DNA of 64,000 nucleotides from Parcubacteria group bacterium (GTDB lineage Bacteria > Patescibacteriota > Minisyncoccia > JACPHC01): NCBI GenBank assembly GCA_016188775.1, contig JACPHC010000003.1:344-64343 (forward strand), in the 5' to 3' direction. How positions within the stretch are numbered: the stretch's first letter is position 1; each line of letters starts with the position of its first letter. The translations under genes were made by a program, and so were the position numbers. The notes beneath the pieces are model-generated. The model was not told where the DNA came from and did no database searches. It was given only the letters and a program-made list of their open reading frames with translations. Below are positions 1,282 to 63,263 of the stretch, in pieces.

Positions 1282-1302
1282 TTACGAGGCTTAGCCTCGT
1301 AA
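1282..1302. repeat. REP-like palindrome TTACGAGGCTTAGCCTCGTAA (copy 1)
   Basis: Palindrome with 9-10 bp arms; six near-identical copies in the window. Confidence 0.8.
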
Positions 1303-1309
1303 GACTAAA

Positions 1310-1864
1310 ATGATTAATAAAAATAAAAACGGATTTACCTTAATCGAAACGATTGTTTATTTCGGCATTTTCATCATTGCCGCTTCAATAATGGTGATTC
1401 TAACCGTCAATTTAACCCGAAATTACACCAGAATAAGAATCAAATCGCAGGTTTTGGTTGAGGCGGAAAAAGTTTTAAATGTTATGCTCAATGAAATCGC
1501 CACAGCCAAAGGAATTTACGCGCCGACTTCCTGCTTTGGAACATCTGACGCGAAAACAATTTGTCAGACAGGAAAAAGACAATTAAGTTTTGAGACAACT
1601 CTTAATCCGCCGACCGGCGAAAACTCCGCTTATGTTGATTTTTATCTGGATAATCAAAAAATTTATGTTAAAAGGGAATCTCAAACGGCTCAAACTCTCA
1701 CTTCGGATCGAATTCAAATCTCCAATCTGACATTTGACTACTATAATCCTTCGACTAATTCCGCCTCGATTAAAATCCGTTTAACCGCCGGCTTTAACGC
1801 TTCGGATCCGCAAAAAATTTTCCAAGTCAATCTCGATTCTTCAGCGGCCATTAGGGCATATTAG
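1310..1864 (+). CDS. Type IV pilin-like protein (pseudopilin)
   Basis: N-terminus KNGFTLIETIVYFGIFIIAAS, a prepilin cleavage/methylation motif. Confidence 0.7.
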   Translation: MINKNKNGFTLIETIVYFGIFIIAASIMVILTVNLTRNYTRIRIKSQVLVEAEKVLNVMLNEIATAKGIYAPTSCFGTSDAKTICQTGKRQLSFETTLNPPTGENSAYVDFYLDNQKIYVKRESQTAQTLTSDRIQISNLTFDYYNPSTNSASIKIRLTAGFNASDPQKIFQVNLDSSAAIRAY

Positions 1865-1865
1865 T

Positions 1866-1888
1866 CTTATGAGGCTAAGCCTCGTAAG
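1866..1888. repeat. REP-like palindrome (copy 2, TTATGAGGCTAAGCCTCGTAA)
   Basis: Same palindrome family, 2 nt after the pseudopilin stop. Confidence 0.8.
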
Positions 1889-1894
1889 ACTATA

Positions 1895-2010
1895 AGATTG
1901 CTTCGCTTTCAGCTCGCAATGACAACCAGTTCAGCTCGCAATAATATAAAAATATTTAACTGTCATTGCGAGGCGATGGAATCGCCGAAGCAATCTCTCT
2001 TAATATATTC
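1895..2010. mobile_element. Rearranged fragments of MITE-like element B (GTCATTGCGAG terminal inverted repeats): two left-end copies and one right end
   Basis: GCTCGCAATGACA occurs twice, followed by TGTCATTGCGAGGCGATGGAATCGCCGAAGCAATC. These match the reverse complement of element ends at 62517-62611 and 63060-63199. Confidence 0.6.
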
Positions 2011-2031
2011 AACAATCTTACAAGCAAAACA

Positions 2032-4932
2032 ATGTTCAATAAACACAAAAACGCCGGTTTCGCGACCTTGCTGACAATAGTAATTATTTTAGGCCTTAGC
2101 CTGATTATCGTCAGCGGTTTTTCCGTTGCCAGTCTGTCTAATATCCGTGAATCCAAACGCGCTATTAACTCTTCTAAAACTCAATACGTCGCCGAGGCTG
2201 GGATCGAAGACAGTCTTTATCGGATTATAGCCGGGAAACAATACACGGCGACTAATAATTTAGCGGTTGGCGAAGGAACCGCCATCACTAACATTACCGA
2301 TGTTTCCGGCAATAAAATTATCACTTCTCTGGGCAACCGAGAAAATATTTTTAGAAAACTGGAAACAAAATTATCCGTTTCCACTCAAAGCGTTCAATTT
2401 TTCTACGGCGCTCAAATCGGCGAAGGGGGCGCCACTCTTAATAATGGCGCCGAAATCAATGGCAATGTCTATTCCAACGGCAATATTGTAATGACTGCCA
2501 ACGCTAAAATTAGCGGCGGCGCTATTGTGGCCGGCGGCATCGCCCCAACGCCCGATCAGCAATGGACCATTGGAAATTCCGATTTTCCTTTTGGACTGAC
2601 CACTGGCACAACCGCCATCACCGTTGATGAGCCGGGCGATATCGGCGACTATAACGCATTAACTTTGGGTTCTGACGGACTAGCCCGGATCAGCTATTAC
2701 GACGCGTCCAATAATGATCTTAAATACGTCCGTTGTACTTCAGCCGACTGTGTTTCAAAAAATATTACTACAATTGATTCTAGCGGCGATGTCGGATTTC
2801 GTTATACTTCCATTGCCATTGCCCTGGATGGATTGGCCCGAATCAGTTATTACAATAATACTAACGGCGACCTAAAATACGTTCAATGCGCCAATGACGA
2901 CTGCACGACAAAAAATATCGCCACTATTGATTCCAGTGGCGATGTCGGCCAATTCAACTCTCTGGCTTTAGGCACTGACGGATTGGCCCGAATCAGCTAT
3001 TACGCCGTCTCGGGCGGCAATCTTAAATTCCTTCACTGTTTGAACGATAACTGTTCATTGCGAAACACTTACACTGTTGACTCAATTGGCGATGTGGGCA
3101 AATACACTTCAATAGTCTTGGATCAAAACAACATCGCGATGATCAGTTATCTTGACGAAACCAATGATGATTTAAAATTTACCCAATGTTTAAATGTTGA
3201 TTGCTCCGCGGTCAATAATTACATCGTTGACTCAACCGGCGATGTCGGCCAATTCAAAACTTCCATCGCTCTTGGGTCTGACGAACTGGCCCGAATCAGT
3301 TATTATGACGACACGGGTAAGGATCTTAAATACGCTCAATGTTTAAACATCAGTTGCACGCTTAAAAATATAACTATTGTGGACTCGGCAGATCAAGTTG
3401 GAAAATACAGCTCGCTTCGACTTAATCCGGCTGACGGATTGGCCCGAATTTCTTATTATGACGCGACCAACGGCGCTGCTAAATTCGCCCGATGCTTAAA
3501 CGATTCTTGCTCCCAAAAAAATATTTCCACTCCGGATACCACCGGCAATGTCGGGCTTTACACTTCTTTGGCGATGGCTCAAGACGGCTTTGGCCAAATC
3601 AGTTATCGCGATGACACGAATCAGGATTTAAAATTTCTCAAATGCGCTGATCCGGATTGTAATCCGGGACAAACCACCGGCGACGCGGCTCAAAGTTTTA
3701 TTCCGTCAGCCACTAATCTTTTGCGTAAAATCAGCCTCAATATCAAAAAAATCGGCAGTCCGGGTGATGCCACCGTCAGGATAATGGCCAATAAATCTCC
3801 ACAAAATGTTCCGGATAAAGATAATACATTAACCACTGGCACGCTTTATTCTTCGATGGTCACTGGCAGTTATGGCTGGGTGGACGCGGCTTTTGTCACT
3901 AATCCGACTTTAAATATCGGACAAACTTATTGGATTGTTATTGACGCGGTTAATGATTCCAATAATTATTGGGTTTGGGCTAAAGATAATACCGACGCTT
4001 ATGTTTCCGGCACTGGTAAATTCGCTTTAAATTGGGATATTTCGCCCAATAACTGGTCAAGCGCGGGCGGCGATCTTGATTTTAAAACTTGGATGGCCGG
4101 AACTGTGACGAAAATAGATGGTGGCGTTGTTTCCGACGCGGCTCAAGCCAATACTTTAATCAACACCAAAATCTGCGGGGACGCTTATTTTCAAGCCATT
4201 GACGCTTTTTCGCTCAATTTCGTCAATAATCCGACCAATCCCGATTGCGCTAATCCTTTAACTCCGGGCATGTCTTTTCCCGGTTCCTCCGACCCTTCTC
4301 CGCTGGCTATGCCTATTTCCGACGGCCAAATTGACGCGTGGAAAACCGACGCCCAAGCCGGCGGCGTTATTGCCGGAGATTACAACGTGACTTCTGATGT
4401 CAGTCTTGGTCCGAAAAAAATCACCGGCAATCTTAATATGACCAGTAACAATAGAACTCTGACCGTCACCGGAACAATTTATATCGCGGGCAATATAGAT
4501 ATTGCCAACAATTCAAGAATCCGCTGCGACGCTTCTTACGGGATAAATTCATGCGTTGTTGTGGCGGACGGTTGGATTCATATTTCCAATAACGGACAAT
4601 TCGCCGGATCGGGTCAGGCCGGCAGTTATATTATGCTGCTGACGACCGCTCCCTGCAAAGGAACCGGTTTTTCCAATCCGCCAACGCCTTGCGCCTCCGC
4701 CCACCATGAAGCCAGCGTTGACCTTCATAACAGCGCCACCGGAATAATTTTTTACGCCAAAAACGGACTGATTAATCTTCATAACACAGTTAATGTCACG
4801 GAATTGTCGTCTTTTAAACTGGCGCTGGATAACAACGCCGTGATAAATTACGAACAAGGACTGCAAAACGCTCAGTTCACTTCCGGCCCAAGCGCGGGCT
4901 ATAAAATCGAATACTGGAAAGAAGTGCCTTAA
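2032..4932 (+). CDS. Large pilus-associated protein: pilin-like N-terminal helix, eight tandem ~44-aa Cys-containing repeats (propeller-like) and a C-terminal beta-helix-like region; putative tip adhesin
   Basis: MFNKHKNAGFATLLTIVIILGL is a pilin-like N-terminus. The repeat unit is GDVGxYTS(I/L)AL..DGLARISYYDxTNxDLKYxxCxNxxC..KNI..IDS, eight copies. The ORF-track start at 1966 (TTG) lies inside a MITE fragment, so the ATG at 2032 is preferred. Confidence 0.6.
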   Translation: MFNKHKNAGFATLLTIVIILGLSLIIVSGFSVASLSNIRESKRAINSSKTQYVAEAGIEDSLYRIIAGKQYTATNNLAVGEGTAITNITDVSGNKIITSLGNRENIFRKLETKLSVSTQSVQFFYGAQIGEGGATLNNGAEINGNVYSNGNIVMTANAKISGGAIVAGGIAPTPDQQWTIGNSDFPFGLTTGTTAITVDEPGDIGDYNALTLGSDGLARISYYDASNNDLKYVRCTSADCVSKNITTIDSSGDVGFRYTSIAIALDGLARISYYNNTNGDLKYVQCANDDCTTKNIATIDSSGDVGQFNSLALGTDGLARISYYAVSGGNLKFLHCLNDNCSLRNTYTVDSIGDVGKYTSIVLDQNNIAMISYLDETNDDLKFTQCLNVDCSAVNNYIVDSTGDVGQFKTSIALGSDELARISYYDDTGKDLKYAQCLNISCTLKNITIVDSADQVGKYSSLRLNPADGLARISYYDATNGAAKFARCLNDSCSQKNISTPDTTGNVGLYTSLAMAQDGFGQISYRDDTNQDLKFLKCADPDCNPGQTTGDAAQSFIPSATNLLRKISLNIKKIGSPGDATVRIMANKSPQNVPDKDNTLTTGTLYSSMVTGSYGWVDAAFVTNPTLNIGQTYWIVIDAVNDSNNYWVWAKDNTDAYVSGTGKFALNWDISPNNWSSAGGDLDFKTWMAGTVTKIDGGVVSDAAQANTLINTKICGDAYFQAIDAFSLNFVNNPTNPDCANPLTPGMSFPGSSDPSPLAMPISDGQIDAWKTDAQAGGVIAGDYNVTSDVSLGPKKITGNLNMTSNNRTLTVTGTIYIAGNIDIANNSRIRCDASYGINSCVVVADGWIHISNNGQFAGSGQAGSYIMLLTTAPCKGTGFSNPPTPCASAHHEASVDLHNSATGIIFYAKNGLINLHNTVNVTELSSFKLALDNNAVINYEQGLQNAQFTSGPSAGYKIEYWKEVP
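2631..3670 (+). repeat. Eight tandem 132-nt coding repeats inside the large pilus-associated gene
   Basis: Recurring GACGGATTGGCCCGAATCAG(C/T)TATTAC at 132-nt spacing (around 2679, 2830, 2983, 3284, 3436). Confidence 0.75.
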
Positions 4933-4950
4933 ACTTTACGAGGCTTAAAC

Positions 4951-4973
4951 TTTACGAGGCTAAGCCTCGTAAA
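4951..4973. repeat. REP-like palindrome (copy 3; a half copy also at 4934-4946) overlapping the RAYT stop codon
   Basis: TTTACGAGGCTAAGCCTCGTAAA; encodes the last residues ...LRGLAS* of the RAYT on the minus strand. Confidence 0.8.
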
Positions 4974-5596
4974 TTTATTAAAGTGCTTTTTTTATACTGA
5001 ATCGGCCCGCCAAAAAATTTCATTAAAAATTTCCGTTGCGTGACTGAAGGGAAATTTTTTTTCCCAATATAATCACGAAAACTGCTCCATCGATAATTTT
5101 CCAAAAATTTCATCGCTTCTTTATAATTTTTAATTTCTTTATTTTTCCACTCTGGAGATTTCAAATCTAAAGGATTTAAATGGATATAATCAGGAATATG
5201 AAGAAATTGAGCGTCCTTTTCAACTAAAACTGCCTTAAAAGTTCCTTGAAATAAAGAACCGGTTCGTTCGTATTTTTGATTAAAATACATTGTATAACCT
5301 CCTCCTAATTTATGCATAAAATTTGCAATTCCGTTGTCCTGTCGCTGTCTTAAAAGTAAATGAAAATGATTTGGCATTAATGTAAAAACTAAAATTTCGA
5401 CTAATAATTTTCTTTTTTCAATTTTACGAGGCTTAGCCTCGTAATAAGAATTAAGCGCGGGCTTTTCGTCGTTAAATTCAAACAAGTCATGAATAAATCG
5501 AAAATAATCTTTATCATCTAAAAAAATATCGCGCTTTTCCACGCCACGATTATAAATATGATAAATTTTTCCTTCCGTGAATTTTATTTTTCTCAT
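4952..5596 (-). CDS. REP-associated tyrosine transposase (RAYT; IS200/IS605-like Y1 transposase)
   Basis: IYHIYNRGVEKRDIF ... LMPNHFHLLL (HuH motif) ... YTMYFNQKY (catalytic Tyr region). Flanked by REP palindromes. Confidence 0.75.
   Translation of the reverse strand: MRKIKFTEGKIYHIYNRGVEKRDIFLDDKDYFRFIHDLFEFNDEKPALNSYYEAKPRKIEKRKLLVEILVFTLMPNHFHLLLRQRQDNGIANFMHKLGGGYTMYFNQKYERTGSLFQGTFKAVLVEKDAQFLHIPDYIHLNPLDLKSPEWKNKEIKNYKEAMKFLENYRWSSFRDYIGKKNFPSVTQRKFLMKFFGGPIQYKKSTLINLRGLAS
5424..5444. repeat. REP-like palindrome (copy 4) located inside the RAYT CDS, in frame (encodes YYEAKPRK)
   Basis: TTACGAGGCTTAGCCTCGTAA within 4952..5596. Confidence 0.75.
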
Positions 5597-5605
5597 AAAA
5601 TAATT

Positions 5606-5626
5606 TTATGAGGCTTAGCCTCGTAA
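5606..5626. repeat. REP-like palindrome (copy 5), 10 nt upstream of the RAYT start
   Basis: TTATGAGGCTTAGCCTCGTAA. Confidence 0.8.
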
Positions 5627-5670
5627 AGTCAAGTTTTACATCTAAATAATTTATATGATAAAATATAACT

Positions 5671-6753: not shown

Positions 6754-6757
6754 GTAT

Positions 6758-6921
6758 AGACCTTTTACAAAATAATTTTTCCTACTCTAATTCTCAAATT
6801 TCGGCTGTAAATTATTCAGAGCTCCTCAACGTATTTTAATCAAATACGCTTCGTCGCTCTTCATAATTTTCGCTCGAAATTTGCGAATTTCGTTACGAAA
6901 AAATTATTTCGCAAAAAGTCT
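6758..6921 (+). mobile_element. MITE-like element A, copy 1 (terminal inverted repeats AGACCTTTTACAAAATAAT / ATTATTTCGCAAAAAGTCT); the right end abuts the pilN ATG
   Basis: About 165 nt, bounded by ~19-bp imperfect inverted repeats. Homologous to 7460-7612 and to the reverse complement of 36810-37005. Lacks the 34-nt internal hairpin present in the other copies. Confidence 0.7.
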
Positions 6922-7456: not shown

Positions 7457-7459
7457 CAT

Positions 7460-7612
7460 AGACCTCTTGCAAAATAATCTTTTCTACTCCAATTCTCAAA
7501 TTTCGGGTGTCAACCCTACGGGTGATCTCCCGTAGGGAGACAAATTATTCAGAGCTTCTCAACGTATTTTGATTAAAATACGCTTCGTCGCTCTTCATAA
7601 TTTTCGCAAAAA
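7460..7612 (+). mobile_element. MITE-like element A, copy 2 (right end internally deleted); contains the CCCTACGGG-TGATCT-CCCGTAGGG hairpin
   Basis: Left inverted repeat AGACCTCTTGCAAAATAAT at 7460. The 9-bp stem hairpin sits at 7514-7537. The right end is truncated after ...TTTTCGCAAAAA. Confidence 0.65.
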
Positions 7613-7758
7613 TTTTAATCTCCGGCCTATCCGCTCTATTCGTTGTAATAATTTTATTTTTTCTGGCGATTTTTCCTTTATCCAAAAAAATCAAGGAAAC
7701 GTCAAATAAAATATCCGAAACGAGATATGAAATTTTAAAAATCGCCAAGAAAAAACAA

Positions 7759-32433: not shown

Positions 32434-32473
32434 TTTTACATATTTTCAAACGATCGTTTAAAAATATGTAAAA
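32434..32473. repeat. 40-bp palindrome with CGATCG core (TTTTACATATTTTCAAACGATCGTTTAAAAATATGTAAAA)
   Basis: Near-identical to the copy at 44299-44338. Confidence 0.75.
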
Positions 32474-32506
32474 ATAGTTTCGTCAAATTTTGTCGGCGTC
32501 AAATTT

Positions 32507-35757: not shown

Positions 35758-35801
35758 AAATTTACACCTTTACGGACGATCGTCCGTAAAGGTGTAAATT
35801 T
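35758..35801. repeat. 44-bp perfect palindrome with CGATCG core (AAATTTACACCTTTACGGACGATCGTCCGTAAAGGTGTAAATTT)
   Basis: Shares the central ACGATCGT with the 32434 and 44299 palindromes; the arms differ. Confidence 0.7.
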
Positions 35802-35845: not shown

Positions 35846-35960
35846 GCTAATTTTATCCAATCTGACAAGCTTAAATTCTCCGGCCTTAATTTTGGATCAA
35901 GGCCGGATTTTTTCAGCCAAATCTCGACTTTTTCTTTATCAAGGCCGAGGTTTTTAAATC
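35846..35960 (-). pseudogene. Diverged duplicate of the ksgA 3' end (encodes ...GLDPKLRPENLSLSDWIKLAKVSF*) immediately downstream of the functional gene
   Basis: About 115 nt, roughly 80% identical to 35990-36075. Confidence 0.55.
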
Positions 35961-35982
35961 TTACGATGCTAAGCCTCGTAAG
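35960..35982. repeat. REP-like palindrome (copy 6, one mismatch) forming the last codons and stop of ksgA
   Basis: CTTACGATGCTAAGCCTCGTAAG; the minus-strand reading gives ...VLRGLAS*. Confidence 0.75.
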
Positions 35983-36809
35983 ACTACTAATTTTATCCAA
36001 TCTTTTAAGCTTAAATTCTCCGGTCTTAATTTTGGATTAAGACCGGCTTTTTTTATCCAAATTTCAGTCTTTGCTTTATCCATACTTAAATTTTTTGAAA
36101 GCGTGTTTAAAATAGTTTTTCGTTTTCCTTGAAAAGCCGGCCGAGCGATTTTAAAAATTTTTTTTGTTTCCTTTTTTAAAGGTTTTTTAGTTTTAGGAAT
36201 AATTTTTAAAATCGCCGAATCCACTTTTGGCTGGGGCCAAAAAGAGCCTTTTTTCACATAATCCGCGATTTGGGCGTTAGCAAAAATTTGAACGCTCAAG
36301 GCTAATAAATTCATATCCGGCGGCCGAGCCAATATTCTTTGCCCCACTTCTTTTTGAACCATAATAATCATTTTTTGAGGCTGAAATTCGGAATCTAAAA
36401 ATTTTTGAATCACTCGTGAAGCGATATTGTAAGGCAAATTAGCCACCAGCGCGTAATTTTTCGCCAAATTAAGGCTTTGAATATCCAATTTCAAAATATC
36501 GGCCTGGATCAGCCGGATATTTTGAAGATTTTCTGATTCAAAAATGCCAGCGGCGATTTGAGCCAGTTGTTTATCTTTTTCAATCGCGACAACTTTTTTC
36601 GCTTTTCTCGCCAAAGCCACGGTCAAAGTTCCAAGACCGGCGCCTATTTCCAAAACTTCATCTTCCTTTTTTAAATCCGCGGCTTGAATAATTTTTTCTA
36701 AAACTCCGGGGTTAATTAAAAAATTCTGGCCTAAAGATTTCTTGGGATAAATATGATGTTGGGCTAAAATTTTTTTAATACTGACAGCCGAAAAAAAATT
36801 ATCACTCAT
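35961..36809 (-). CDS. ksgA: 16S rRNA (adenine1518/1519-N6)-dimethyltransferase
   Basis: SLGQNFL ... EIGAGLG ... NLPYNI motifs. Confidence 0.9.
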   Translation of the reverse strand: MSDNFFSAVSIKKILAQHHIYPKKSLGQNFLINPGVLEKIIQAADLKKEDEVLEIGAGLGTLTVALARKAKKVVAIEKDKQLAQIAAGIFESENLQNIRLIQADILKLDIQSLNLAKNYALVANLPYNIASRVIQKFLDSEFQPQKMIIMVQKEVGQRILARPPDMNLLALSVQIFANAQIADYVKKGSFWPQPKVDSAILKIIPKTKKPLKKETKKIFKIARPAFQGKRKTILNTLSKNLSMDKAKTEIWIKKAGLNPKLRPENLSLKDWIKLVVLRGLAS

Positions 36810-37005
36810 AAGACCTTTTGCGAAATAATTTTTCGTAACGAAATTCGCAAATTTCGAGCGAAAATTATGAAGAGCGACGAAGCGTATTTTAATTAAAATA
36901 CGTTGAGGAGCTCTGAATAATTTGTCTCCCTACGGGAGATCACCCGTAGGGTTGACACCCGAAATTTGAGAATTGGAGTAGAAAAGATTATTTTGCAAGA
37001 GGTCT
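36810..37005 (-). mobile_element. MITE-like element A, copy 3 (full length, with the internal hairpin). Its right end abuts the ksgA ATG; its left inverted repeat contributes the uvrD/pcrA stop codon.
   Basis: The reverse complement matches 7460-7612 and 6758-6921. Terminal inverted repeats are AGACCTCTTGCAAAATAAT / ATTATTTCGCAAAAGGTCT. Confidence 0.7.
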
Positions 37006-38938
37006 AAAAGATTATGATTTCTTCATTTTGTCCTACTCCTTCCGCTTCGTTAAATTCCACCAGATGTTCGGGAATATCGGCCAAAAACCTGGAAGGAGAA
37101 TTGATTGAATTTAGGCCGTAAAGAGTCCTGGAGCGGGTAAAAATCAAATGAAGCCTTTCTTTAGCCCGGGTCATTCCGACATAGCAAAGCCGTCTTTCTT
37201 CTTCAAGCTCGGCTGGATTCGTCAAACTGTCCCGCCAGGGAAGCAACCCTTCTTCGCAGCCGATAATAAAAACCGCCGGGAATTCCAGTCCTTTAGCCGC
37301 GTGGATGGTCATTAAACTGACCGCGTTTTTCTCGTCCATTTCGTCTCCGGAGCTAAAAAGCGAAACATGCGTTAAAAACTCCGGCAAAGTTTTTTGAGCC
37401 GGCTCATTGCCCCAATTTTTCGCCGCGCCCAAAAGTTCTTGAATATTTTCCCGGCGATCGTTATGACTCAACTCGGCCTCATTTTTTAAATAATCAAAAT
37501 AGCCGGTTTTCTCCATTATTAATTTGATCAAAGAATTGAGGCTTAAAGCCTCGCTTTCTTTTTTTAATTCTTCCATAAGAGAGAAAAAGCTTTTGACGTT
37601 TGAATTTAAATTCGCGGCTTCAATGAGCCCCTTTTGGAAAATCAGCTCTTGAGTTTTTTTGCCAATGCCCCTGGGAGGCGTATTGATAATTCTCAAAAGA
37701 GAAATTCTATCCGCTTCATTTTGAATGATTTTTAAATAAGACAAAGCGTCTTTAATTTCTTTTCGCGACCAAAATTTCACTCCGCCGATAATCCGATAAG
37801 GAATTTTTTCAGCTAAAAACGCTTCTTCCTGGGCCCGGGATTGAGCGTTAGTCCGGTAAAGCACGGCAAAATCTTTCGGTTTTAATTTATTTTCCCGCAT
37901 TAGATATTTTATTTCTTCCACCACCAGCCGAGCTTCGGATTTTTCCGTGGCCGCGCTGGAAATCAAAATCGGCTGGCCGGATTGATTGGAAGTCCAAAGA
38001 TTTTTGGGTTTTTGAAAAACATTTTTGGCAATAACGCCGGAAGCGGCCTCTAAAATATTTTGGGTCGACCGGTAATTCTCGTCCAAAAAAATCACTTTGG
38101 CATCCGGATAGTCGATTTCAAAATTTAAAATATTCCGGAAATCCGCGCCTCGAAAAGAATAAATTGCTTGAGCGTCGTCGCCGACAACGCAAACATTATT
38201 ATGATTTTGGCTCAGCAGCCGGATTAAAGCGTATTGGATAGAATTAGTATCTTGATACTCGTCGATTAAAATATAGCGAAATTGTTTTTGATATTGCGCT
38301 AACGTGGCGGGAAAATTTTGAAAAAGACTGACGGTTTTAACCAAAAGATCGTCAAAATCCAAAGCGTTATTTTCTTTCAGCTTTTCCTCGTAACGTTTAA
38401 AAATAAGCCCTAAAATTTTTTGAAAAACACTGGTTTGATTTTCCAGTTCGGAAAAAAATTTTTCTCCCCGAAGTTCGTTTTTAATGGAAGAAATTTTAGC
38501 CAAAACCGCGCCGGGGTTCCATGTTTTCGGATCGAGGTTTAATTCCTCAATCGTTTTTTTGATCAGGGCTTTGGAGTCATCGTCGTCATAAATAACAAAA
38601 TCTTGATTAAAACCGAGTTTGGATATTTCTCGACGAAGAATTTTGACGCCGAAAGCGTGAAAAGTGCCTAAATACGGCAAATGAAAATTTTGAAAACCGG
38701 AGTCGGTTTTCAATAAAAGATCGCGGATCCGATTTTTCATTTCTCCGGCCGCTTTATTGGTAAAAGTTAAAGCTAAAATATTTTCCGGTTTGGTTCCCTT
38801 TTTTAAAATATAGGCCAGACGATGGGTCAAGGTTTTGGTTTTGCCAGATCCAGCTCCGGCAATAATCAAAACCGGCCCTTGAGTGGCCAGAACCGCTTCT
38901 TTTTGCCTCGAATTTAATGATTCTAAAATAAAATCCAT
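37004..38938 (-). CDS. pcrA: ATP-dependent DNA helicase, UvrD/PcrA family
   Basis: Walker A GAGSGKTKTL plus UvrD-family helicase motifs throughout. Confidence 0.9.
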   Translation of the reverse strand: MDFILESLNSRQKEAVLATQGPVLIIAGAGSGKTKTLTHRLAYILKKGTKPENILALTFTNKAAGEMKNRIRDLLLKTDSGFQNFHLPYLGTFHAFGVKILRREISKLGFNQDFVIYDDDDSKALIKKTIEELNLDPKTWNPGAVLAKISSIKNELRGEKFFSELENQTSVFQKILGLIFKRYEEKLKENNALDFDDLLVKTVSLFQNFPATLAQYQKQFRYILIDEYQDTNSIQYALIRLLSQNHNNVCVVGDDAQAIYSFRGADFRNILNFEIDYPDAKVIFLDENYRSTQNILEAASGVIAKNVFQKPKNLWTSNQSGQPILISSAATEKSEARLVVEEIKYLMRENKLKPKDFAVLYRTNAQSRAQEEAFLAEKIPYRIIGGVKFWSRKEIKDALSYLKIIQNEADRISLLRIINTPPRGIGKKTQELIFQKGLIEAANLNSNVKSFFSLMEELKKESEALSLNSLIKLIMEKTGYFDYLKNEAELSHNDRRENIQELLGAAKNWGNEPAQKTLPEFLTHVSLFSSGDEMDEKNAVSLMTIHAAKGLEFPAVFIIGCEEGLLPWRDSLTNPAELEEERRLCYVGMTRAKERLHLIFTRSRTLYGLNSINSPSRFLADIPEHLVEFNEAEGVGQNEEIIIF

Positions 38939-44257: not shown

Positions 44258-44298
44258 AAATTTATTTTACAATAATATAATAAAAAATGACAAACTAT

Positions 44299-44338
44299 TT
44301 CTACATATTTTCAAACGATCGTTTGAAAATATGTAGAA
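44299..44338. repeat. 40-bp perfect palindrome with CGATCG core (TTCTACATATTTTCAAACGATCGTTTGAAAATATGTAGAA)
   Basis: Second copy of the 32434 element. Confidence 0.75.
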
Positions 44339-62516: not shown

Positions 62517-62650
62517 GTCATTGCGAGCAAAGCGAAGCAATCTTAAAAAGAATCGCGTAAATTTTTAAATTAAGAGATCGCTTCGGCCATTCCATCGCCT
62601 CGCAATGACGGTTAAAAGATTGTTTTTAACGATTCCATCGCCTCGCGCTG
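62517..62650. mobile_element. MITE-like element B, copy 1 (inverted repeats GTCATTGCGAG / CTCGCAATGAC) plus an extra partial right end
   Basis: TGTCATTGCGAGCAAAGCGAAGCAATC ... GATCGCTTCGGCCATTCCATCGCCTCGCAATGACGG, then GATTCCATCGCCTCGCGCTG. Confidence 0.65.
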
Positions 62651-63059
62651 TATGCTTTATTGAATAATAAATCTTACCTGTGGATAAATTGGGGAAATGA
62701 TAAAGAATTACAAATGTAAATTTATTAAACTATCTTTAAAAATCCGCTCAACCAAGCGGATTTTTAAAGATTAAACATTTGACAAATATCTTAAAAAGTT
62801 ATCAACTGAATAACCTATTGACTTCTTTCGCGCGTAGACTAAAATATAAATAGATCTTTGCGAGTTTGAAAAAATTTCCCGAATTCAACGGGAAAACAGT
62901 TCTTTTTTCAATTTTGTTCTTTGCTCAAAGTCCAATTCGGACAAACTGGCAGAGATTTGCAAATTTCTGTCTTGTTTCGAAGACAGAACCAAAGGCGCTT
63001 TAGCCCAATTTATACAAAATATATTTTAAGGGCTTATAAAGCGCCTTTTTTATTTATTT

Positions 63060-63199
63060 TGTCATTGCGAGCTGAAAGCGAAGCAATTTCAAAAAAAATC
63101 GCGTAAATTTTTAAATTAAGAGATCGCTTCGGCCATTCCATCTCCTCGCAATGACGGTTAAAAGATTGTTTTAGCGATTCCATCGCCCCGCAATGACGA
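63060..63199. mobile_element. MITE-like element B, copy 2 (about 90% identical to copy 1, with a duplicated right end)
   Basis: TGTCATTGCGAGCTGAAAGCGAAGCAAT ... CTCCTCGCAATGACGG ... GATTCCATCGCCCCGCAATGACGAG. Confidence 0.65.
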
Positions 63200-63263
63200 G
63201 CTGAAAAATTATTTTGATGATTTCATTTGATATCTGATTTTACAAATAGTAAAATAAAAGCAA

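Follow-up and report, generated by a model that had tools for sequence, protein, structure and literature searches.

The window analyzed here, a stretch of 64,000 nucleotides (nt) from contig JACPHC010000003.1 of a Parcubacteria group bacterium, contains a set of short repetitive extragenic palindromes (REPs) clustered around a gene for a Y1 HuH nuclease of the REP-associated tyrosine transposase (RAYT) type, and one copy of the palindrome stands in frame within that gene. The gene sits among type IV pilus genes (N_methyl pseudopilin, PilM, and PilN), between which it is placed on the opposite strand. Its product of 214 amino acids (aa) is 100% identical to an NCBI protein named "transposase [Parcubacteria group bacterium]" from a Parcubacteria-group metagenome-assembled genome (MAG). 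The nuclease gene and the palindromes of the window are as follows.

4952..5596, minus strand: RAYT-type Y1 HuH nuclease gene, 214 aa, with a match to Pfam Y1_Tnp
5606..5626, minus strand: upstream REP, ending 9 nt before the ATG at 5596-5594
5424..5444, minus strand: internal REP, at the position called site A below, in frame and encoding Y(51)YEAKPRK(58)
4952..4972, minus strand: 3' REP, forming the last six RAYT codons (LRGLAS) and the stop codon
4931..4947, strand unspecified: half copy, in which the left arm and the loop are duplicated (AACTTTACGAGGCTTA); it follows immediately on the stop codon of a gene for a 966-aa protein
1863..1891, strand unspecified: REP in the longest form found in the window, a 29-nt palindrome (AGTCTTATGAGGCTAAGCCTCGTAAGACT), -11.1 kcal/mol
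1282..1302, strand unspecified: REP in the gap between two pseudopilin-like genes, separated by 4 nt from the stop codon of the first and by 7 nt from the ATG of the next
35956..35986, minus strand: distant REP, with which ksgA/rsmA (35961-36809) ends (codons for LRGLAS, then the stop)

A pattern search for the 21-nt palindrome (TTAYGAGGCTWAGCCTCGTAA / TTACGAGGCTTAGCCTCGTAA) with up to 2 mismatches returned six copies, starting at 1282, 1867, 4952, 5424, 5606, and 35961, while none of 100 dinucleotide-preserving shuffles contained a match (expected number, 0); the core GAGGCTWAGCCTC leads to the same six sites. Five of the six copies lie around the one nuclease gene, no more than 4.4 kb from it. 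The sequence-only reading of this DNA had described a REP-RAYT system of six palindromes around an IS200-like Y1 gene, and both the cluster and the system are supported, the latter also by inverted arms of 31 nt that flank the gene (4949-4979 and 5599-5629) and are 94% complementary; what needs correction, apart from small details of position, concerns the length of the protein and how unusual the arrangement is. Its coordinates were right to within one base (three copies, placed at 1866, 4951, and 35960, each begin one base later), and the upstream REP is where it was said to be, at a distance of 9 rather than 10 nt from the gene. The half copy reported near 4934 is real, AACTTTACGAGGCT being present at 4931-4944 and again at 4948-4961. 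Counted with its flanks, the window palindrome reaches up to 31 nt, and a 31-nt perfect palindrome, CAATCTTACGAGGCTAAGCCTCGTAAGATTG, is the form of the element in other metagenomes. All six copies are predicted to fold as single-stranded DNA into hairpins with stems of 9 to 14 bp, at free energies between -4.6 and -11.1 kcal/mol and z-scores between -3.4 and -7.7, which is the stable hairpin asked of a canonical REP. The flanks read AATYT/AGTCT...AAGAYT, and nowhere in them is the conserved 5' GT[AG]G (or CGTC) foot of canonical REPs found. In the terms of Quentin et al. (2018; PMC6006769), the window palindromes are atypical secondary structures or self-complementary terminal inverted repeats (TIRs). 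A search of Rfam gave no family for the element. The REP at 1863-1891 shares bases with the stop codon that ends the pseudopilin gene 1310-1864, and together with the copy at 1282 it makes up a pair of inverted repeats.

A tandem part-duplication of the left arm lies directly 5' of a full copy at window positions 4931-4961 (AACTTTACGAGGCTTA and then AACTTTACGAGGCT). Further left-arm duplications were seen at site A of two homologous loci (L011/L146; peptide YETKQLYEAKPRK) and in a TsaD gene of another contig (L085, 2520-2560; peptide QSYESYEAKPRK). They may be a footprint of the making or the repair of copies.

Over residues 63-139, the 214-aa protein matches Pfam Y1_Tnp (PF01797) at 37 bits, above the gathering score of 23. 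It has the HuH motif NHFH at residues 76-79 (nt 5371-5360), the catalytic tyrosine motif YIHLNP at residues 137-142 (nt 5188-5171), an SS motif (YRWSSF) at residues 168-173, and an FQ motif in the form LFQG. N76, H77, H79, Y137, H139, and N141 are invariant across 62 homologues. The context of the tyrosine is the Y---NP of class 2 and not the Y---Q of IS200. The sole NCBIfam match is to REP_Tyr_transpos (NF047646), at 39.9 bits, which is under the 80-bit cutoff of that model; the protein does not qualify as an equivalog of the curated (proteobacterial-type) RAYT. Pfam reports neither a helix-turn-helix (HTH) nor a Bac_DnaA_C domain in it. An AlphaFold model with a predicted local distance difference test (pLDDT) score of 74, compared with the Protein Data Bank (PDB) by Foldseek, has as its top 19 matches the ISDra2, IS608, and IS200-family transposases at a probability of about 1.0, with TM-scores on the target of 0.5-0.6 and modest E-values from 3.5e-3 upward. 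Sequence searches of the PDB, with the single protein or with a 62-sequence profile, gave only marginal matches to ISDra2 TnpA (E of 0.07-0.9) and did not find 4ER8. The family to which the protein belongs has 7472 database members at E <= 0.001, with a typical length of about 233 aa. An assembly duplication or artifact is unlikely, because the independent Logan assembly L165 contains the identical gene with the same three REPs and the same arrangement of gene and REPs recurs on at least 12 other contigs.

The two copies within the gene are read in different frames. The internal REP is translated as T TAC GAG GCT AAG CCT CGT AA, starting with the third base of codon 51 and stopping after the second base of codon 58, and the 3' REP as TTA CGA GGC TTA GCC TCG TAA, giving LRGLAS and the stop. 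An A at the palindrome center on the sense strand makes the codon AAG (Lys), and the opposite orientation makes it a TAG stop. The third frame of the palindrome (LRGLAS and stop) ends not only the window RAYT but also the window ksgA and the homologue P0029, the latter with the same NLRGLAS; in another homologue (P0095) the 3' copy is in the first frame and in the stop orientation, so that the protein ends ...IYET. The peptide of the internal copy falls in the segment that the model predicts with the least confidence by pLDDT, residues 48-59, which lies between a helix (28-40) and the strand (66-73) preceding the HuH strand. This loop is about 25 aa long in the window protein and 25-35 aa in the family, compared with about 5 aa in E. 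coli RayT, so in this limited sense the REP-encoded segment is an insertion relative to canonical RAYTs. It is not a one-off event, since the peptide and its variants are conserved at site A in relatives of 55-80% identity; those of 65-80% identity have YEAKPRK, YETKSHR, YEVKPRK, and YEVELRK there.

Set beside these data, most of what the first reading had said of the gene is sound: the HuH and tyrosine motifs hold up in the profile search, the internal copy is in frame and encodes YYEAKPRK at residues 51-58, it occupies a predicted loop, and a REP forms the last codons and the stop. The suggestion that the REP-encoded segment is inserted relative to canonical RAYTs is right for the loop length and wrong where it implies a feature of this one protein. 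The statement that 214 aa is longer than typical is correct against IS200 TnpA and E. coli RayT; compared with its own family, the window protein is the shorter one, since its loop lacks about 10 residues immediately ahead of the REP-encoded peptide and the last 20 or so residues (consensus ...WLKEMDLEEIKDLILE) have been replaced by the REP-encoded tail NLRGLAS. That an in-frame REP within its own transposase gene is unusual was overstated, as such copies have been published for subclass 2.4 and some members of subclass 2.8 (PMC6006769; see also Di Nocera et al. 2013, PMC3733652).

The anatomy seen in the window recurs throughout the family. We collected 80 loci with homologues of 42-71% identity from GTDB species-representative genomes, nearly all of them MAGs of the Candidate Phyla Radiation (CPR)/Patescibacteria, and examined the 67 complete genes with flanks for shared words of 12 nt or longer, with displaced windows of the same size as controls. 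The 100 nt upstream share such a word with the stop region in 57 of the 67 (85%), compared with 2 of 58 and 5 of 61 for the controls displaced by about 0.8 kb upstream and downstream, respectively. The interior of the gene shares a word with the upstream flank in 38 genes, with the stop region in 35, with both in 33, and with either in 40. This 12-mer test provides the reliable count, as a finder of perfect-stem flank REPs missed loci with one mismatch, including the window. The internal copies are confined to two places: site A, 20-40 residues before the HuH motif, is occupied in 35 genes including that of the window, and site B, about 7 residues after the tyrosine motif, in 8, few genes having both. 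Perfect stems of at least 8 bp are found in the site-A window in 39% of the genes, as against 1.1% when site A is codon shuffled, 8% at site B, and 0-1% in other gene segments; this test involves no preselection of hairpins. A count of covariation in the site-A hairpins was dropped as circular, for the hairpins had been picked beforehand as the best stem of each sequence.

The internal copy is dispensable. It is absent from 27 of the 67 homologues, 19 of which keep flank REPs and intact catalytic motifs (L005, L006, and L023 are examples). Two truncated homologues, P0063 and P0070, had been considered as products of a REP-to-REP deletion and are simply truncated at the C-terminus. In a relic of another family member (contig L117, 880-1180), the upstream palindrome TTACGAGATCGTATCTCGTAA is followed by 59 N-terminal codons and by TTACGAGATCGTATCTCGTAA again at site A; after another 6 nt there is a site-B-type palindrome of a different kind, TATGGAGGTTCAACCTCAATA, and the entire catalytic core between A and B is missing. 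This single case suggests that internal palindromes can serve as deletion break points.

The sequence of the palindrome differs from genome to genome, yet the copies within one locus match each other with 0-2 mismatches. Thus, the loci have GTTTGGAGATCGGGTCTCCAAAC (L002), TTACGAAGTTCAACTTCGTAA (L003), AGGAAGTCGGACTTCCT (L007), AATATTCGGTCCTTGAAGGACCGAATATT (L031), and TACAAGGTTCAACCTTGTA (L054/L062), and some of these variants are compensatory in the stem (GAAGT..ACTTC in L003; GAGAC..GTCTC in L166 and L167). In L166, with a protein 76% identical to that of the window, CTATGAGACTWAGTCTCATAG stands both upstream and inside the gene, and in L167 (67% identical) TTACGAGACTWAGTCTCGTAA is found at all three positions. 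Where two family members share a contig, as in L021, each has its own palindrome. The exact 21-mer of the window is at site A on 10 metagenome contigs whose RAYTs are 55-74% identical to the window protein, and also in L001 and L011, which were found through the protein. The codon phase of the palindrome center is specific to the clade: it is position 1 in the clade of the window (peptides of the form x-E-[AVIT]-x-[PLS]-[RHP]-x), position 2 in a second clade (LQGSTLL, IQGLPLD, and similar), and position 3 in L038 and L044. Because the phase is clade-specific even though several of the family palindromes are also open in other frames, we infer that the internal copies have persisted in place for long and changed their sequence in concert, rather than having been inserted afresh repeatedly.

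This co-variation of the palindrome with each RAYT gene across dozens of genomes, including two pairs on one contig, bears directly on the view that the host has selected the palindromes as structural elements (bidirectional terminators, for example, or stabilizers of mRNA 3' ends) and that they have no functional link to the neighboring Y1 gene. Several copies are indeed directly at gene ends (1282, 1867, 4952, and 35961), that at 4952 forms on the plus strand a terminator-like hairpin for the convergent pilus-cluster gene, and REPs of E. coli are known to affect mRNA 3' ends (PMC3733652; 10.64898/2026.03.23.713779). However, a host element would not be expected to follow the nuclease in this way, and the in-frame intragenic copies cannot be terminators, so this view appears highly improbable as the sole explanation.

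The palindrome also occurs far beyond the RAYT gene. Exact matches to the 21-mer were found in 84 metagenome stretches, of which 66 have no RAYT homologue in the fetched DNA. Among 136 metagenome copies, 26 are inside long open frames, about 11 of them in non-RAYT genes, and about 10% of the non-RAYT copies are inside genes. In almost all of these last cases, the reading frame is that of (Q/K)SYEAKPRK(I). The hosts identified by Pfam are TsaD and a SpoU methylase (each on two contigs at the same site), RecG, isoleucyl-tRNA synthetase, RsmH, CTP synthase, a DUF4147/MOFRL protein, and a Wzy_C/TPR protein, and in most of them a single domain match spans the REP insert. Essential genes of these small genomes (those for TsaD, isoleucyl-tRNA synthetase, RecG, and CTP synthase) can thus contain an in-frame palindrome of 21-31 nt, and other genes obtain their stop codons from it, which has a bearing on annotation and on how "extragenic" such repeats really are. 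The REP-carrying isoleucyl-tRNA synthetase gene (L118, 3-3545) has, in addition, a histidine phosphatase domain (His_Phos_1) inserted into the synthetase at residues 531-693.

The window has one copy of the nuclease gene and no further fragments of it, and two homologues, P0028 and P0069, each read on 24 contigs from many samples, always have identical neighbors, which fits a resident single-copy gene rather than a multicopy insertion sequence (IS). Some contigs have two different family members, and pairs on one contig are frequent: L030 (1320-2958) has tandem identical copies, and the members on L170 (1896-3702), L021, and L047 are divergent, lie next to or near one another, and have a palindrome of their own in every case. 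These observations allow an assessment of the possibility that the locus is an autonomous IS200/IS605-type IS, of which the upstream and stop-codon palindromes would be the left-end (LE) and right-end (RE) hairpins and the other copies solo ends or miniature derivatives, the gene being mobile as a whole. In favor of an IS, the protein has the fold of IS200/IS605 TnpA and belongs to the same Pfam family, hairpins stand at both gene ends in the 57 of 67 homologues noted above, tandem (L030) and paired (L021, L047, L170) members exist, and some homologues are near contig ends. Against it are the lone gene of the window and the constant neighbors of P0028 and P0069; the tyrosine motif is the Y..NP of class 2 RAYTs instead of the Y...Q of IS200 (PMC6006769), NCBIfam matches only the REP-associated model and not an IS200 model, most palindrome copies of the metagenomes are far from any RAYT gene, and co-resident members have palindromes of their own (L021). 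We therefore regard an IS as improbable.

The upstream REP is the spacer of a promoter-like site on the minus strand, with TTGACT (5632-5627), 18 nt, and TAAAAT (5608-5603), the -10 box ending 6 nt before the RAYT ATG; an mRNA from this site would be leaderless or nearly so. The TTGACT-REP-TAxxAT layout is shared by the window, L001, L166, and L167, with the second box ending 6-8 nt before the ATG, and a TATAAT-like box is present between the upstream palindrome and the ATG at many other loci. An automatic scan of the whole family found a TTGAC box beside the upstream palindrome in only 2 of 52 cases; this box is confined to the close relatives of the window, and the idea that it is a rule of the family was dropped.

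Such a site invites the explanation that the internal REP is a selected cis-regulatory element, which together with the copy embedded in the promoter would bring about negative autoregulation of a potentially harmful nuclease. The internal copy could act as a second, intragenic binding site of the RAYT or as a stable mRNA hairpin that throttles translation, and selection would then maintain its match to the flanks. Self-limitation is common among transposases, and in IS200 left-end hairpins serve this purpose. The position of the upstream REP exactly between the two boxes in the window, L001, L166, and L167 agrees with this explanation, as do the TATAAT-like boxes after the upstream REP elsewhere, the preservation of the internal copies at the same 0-2 mismatches as the flanking ones, and the fact that within clades they stay put while their sequence moves in step with the flanks. 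On the other hand, the 19 homologues with flank REPs and intact catalytic motifs do without an internal copy, as do another 8 of the 27 that have none; the same REP is in frame in unrelated housekeeping genes, to which a regulatory role is inapplicable; two internal sites and three frames are in use; and the promoter boxes are consensus matches in AT-rich DNA, where 7 were found against 3.6 expected. On these grounds we consider selection of the internal copy for regulation conceivable, if on the unlikely side. A fuller form of control, by which the nuclease would sense and limit its own expression or cut its own gene through the promoter, in-frame, and stop-codon copies together, with selection tying the sequence of the intragenic copy to that of the palindromes elsewhere in the genome, seems to us unlikely; were it true, the sequence of a coding segment would be dictated by the DNA-binding specificity of the protein that it encodes.

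The explanation we favor, with a probability of roughly 0.6, is that the locus is a REPtron-like unit of a Parcubacteria (CPR) bacterium, in which a Y1 HuH nuclease of RAYT/TIRYT type, encoded once, goes with a cognate perfect palindrome of 21-31 nt, and in which the internal copy is tolerated and homogenized. By analogy with E. coli TnpA-REP, IS608/ISDra2, and IS200/IS605 TnpA, the nuclease would recognize the hairpin in single-stranded DNA, with cleavage and rejoining beside it, and the palindrome would spread in this way, for the most part to nearby places. Purifying selection would leave copies only at gene ends and in stop-free frames in permissive loops. The landing places would accordingly comprise gene ends where the frame supplies a stop, the promoter region of the enzyme's own gene, and permissive surface loops within coding sequences, and the RAYT gene, being closest, would be the most frequent host. 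The internal copy would be a long-standing resident of the loop that connects the first helix to the strand leading into the HuH motif, tolerated there and not required. Nearby copies would be homogenized, so that the internal one tracks the flanks, and short-patch gene conversion, template switching at hairpins, and enzyme-mediated replacement are candidate processes.

Several points weigh against this explanation. The action of the nuclease on its palindrome is put forward by analogy, and the GT[AG]G foot of canonical REPs is missing. In 64 kb, a single copy falls outside the 4.4-kb cluster. Copies of 21-31 nt that are 200-700 nt apart are poor substrates for ordinary homologous recombination, and homogenization is not uniform, for the 3' copy of L166 is a different variant from its upstream and internal copies. 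Finally, the retention of a perfect internal hairpin in most members and the copy embedded in the promoter would also fit regulatory selection.

The remaining repeats of the window include several that adjoin the palindromes. The distant REP (35956-35986) lies at the end of ksgA/rsmA (RrnaAD, 188 bits) between direct repeats of 109 nt (35847-35955 and 35987-36095) that are 80% identical and represent two versions of the final 36 or so codons of the gene; the repeat unit is 109 + 31 = 140 nt. The ksgA frame reads the inner repeat and then the REP end (...VVLRGLAS and stop), and the outer version (...DWIKLAKVSF and stop) is left downstream as a relic. This 3' end looks like a REP-associated duplication or replacement. 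A second, unrelated family of palindromic repeats, with arms of the CATTGCGAG...CGAAGCAATC type, is found at 1890-1998, beside the REP at 1867, and at 62529-63226, where three to four copies are near the end of the window. A third family consists of long inverted repeats at 6757-6902, 7459-7616, and 36793-37006, about 29 kb apart, which are intergenic, between pilM/pilN/pilO-like genes and beside ksgA; one pair extends over 158 nt at 96% complementarity and another over 69 nt at 96%. A fourth comprises palindromes of 40-47 nt centered on CGATCG (e.g., TTTTACATATTTTCAAACGATCGTTTAAAAATATGTAAAA) at 32434-32480, 35014, 35760-35799, and 44292-44338. No Pfam match was obtained for the 966-aa protein (2032-4932), whose gene belongs to the type IV pilus cluster and has a REP copy on either side; the protein contains five to six repeats of about 51 aa (a 153-nt period with a DGLARISYYD...LKY..C motif).

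The closest previously described systems include those surveyed by Quentin et al. (PMC6006769), who sorted the Y1 proteins into classes, with class 2 (TnpA-REP) having the Y---NP context. Their subclass 2.4 (Bertels group 4) has in-frame REPs inside the tnpAREP genes, generally between the HuH and tyrosine motifs, and some members of subclass 2.8 have a REP insertion. The REPtrons of subclass 2.4 share with the window family a Y1 HuH gene between cognate palindromes, in-frame internal copies, and an insert in a variable, peripheral loop. However, their inserts are between the HuH and tyrosine motifs (beta3 to alphaC), whereas those of the window family are before the HuH strand or just after the tyrosine; their REPs have the GT[AG]G foot, whereas the palindromes of the window family are perfect and lack it; and their hosts are Cyanobacteria and Bacteroidetes rather than CPR/Patescibacteria. 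The motifs also differ (NH[IFV]H, WQ, and YIxNNP as against NHFH, FQ, and YIHLNP), which places the window family outside subclass 2.4.

In its motifs the family resembles subclass 2.1 (Bertels group 1), listed in Table 1 of PMC6006769 with a median length of 238 aa and the signature NH[YF]H, FQ, Y[IV]HLNP, and SS. With this subclass and the TIRYT-TIRtrons it shares the motif signature, the length (about 238 versus about 233 aa), and apparently low-copy repeat families, as well as inverted flanking repeats; the repeats that flank TIRYTs can be self-complementary or overlap the ends of the transposase gene (PMC3733652), at the 5' or 3' side, as here. In contrast, subclass 2.1 has a TIR consensus of GGGGWSAS and C-terminal HTH or DnaA-like domains, whereas no HTH is seen by Pfam in the window family, and no REP-like sequences were found near subclass 2.1 genes by automatic or manual search (PMC6006769), whereas 85% of the window family have flanking palindromes and in-frame internal copies occur. 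Judged by motifs, the family would belong to subclass 2.1, at best as an atypical branch without the HTH tail and without the absence of REPs.

E. coli RayT (YafM, subclass 2.2, 4ER8) aligns with the window protein at the HuH, WQ/FQ, and Y..NP motifs, and its gene has inverted flanking palindromes as well and is single-copy, as that of the window probably is; the relationship is very distant, with an hhalign E of 0.0056 at low probability, and these profile statistics are weak. The E. coli REPs are imperfect, have the GTAG foot, and number in the hundreds with none inside rayT, whereas the window palindrome is perfect and has an internal copy. REPs inside genes, including those for tRNA synthetases and repair proteins, and the palindromic elements of Rickettsia (RPEs) were described by Di Nocera et al. 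(PMC3733652). The RPEs are likewise in-frame palindromes in functional and often essential genes (tRNA synthetases and repair helicases), where they add a short hydrophilic peptide in loops. They differ in being 100-150 bp long with no known cognate transposase, compared with an element of 21-31 nt that adds about 7-10 residues and has a co-varying Y1 gene.

The REPtron, the intragenic REP, and the in-frame REP within a RAYT gene have thus all been published. New are the CPR host lineage, a 2.1-like protein with clear cognate palindromes, the two other insertion loops, and the locus-by-locus co-variation with its clade-specific frame. Work on REP-RAYT systems has been almost entirely on Proteobacteria and Cyanobacteria, and the window locus extends their range to CPR/Patescibacteria and to a branch of Y1 proteins whose nearest described subclass (2.1) was reported without repeats. 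We see this as an informative extension of the known systems rather than a surprise. More generally, the family constitutes a natural experiment in which changes in a nuclease go together with changes in its DNA target and in part of the nuclease's own coding sequence.

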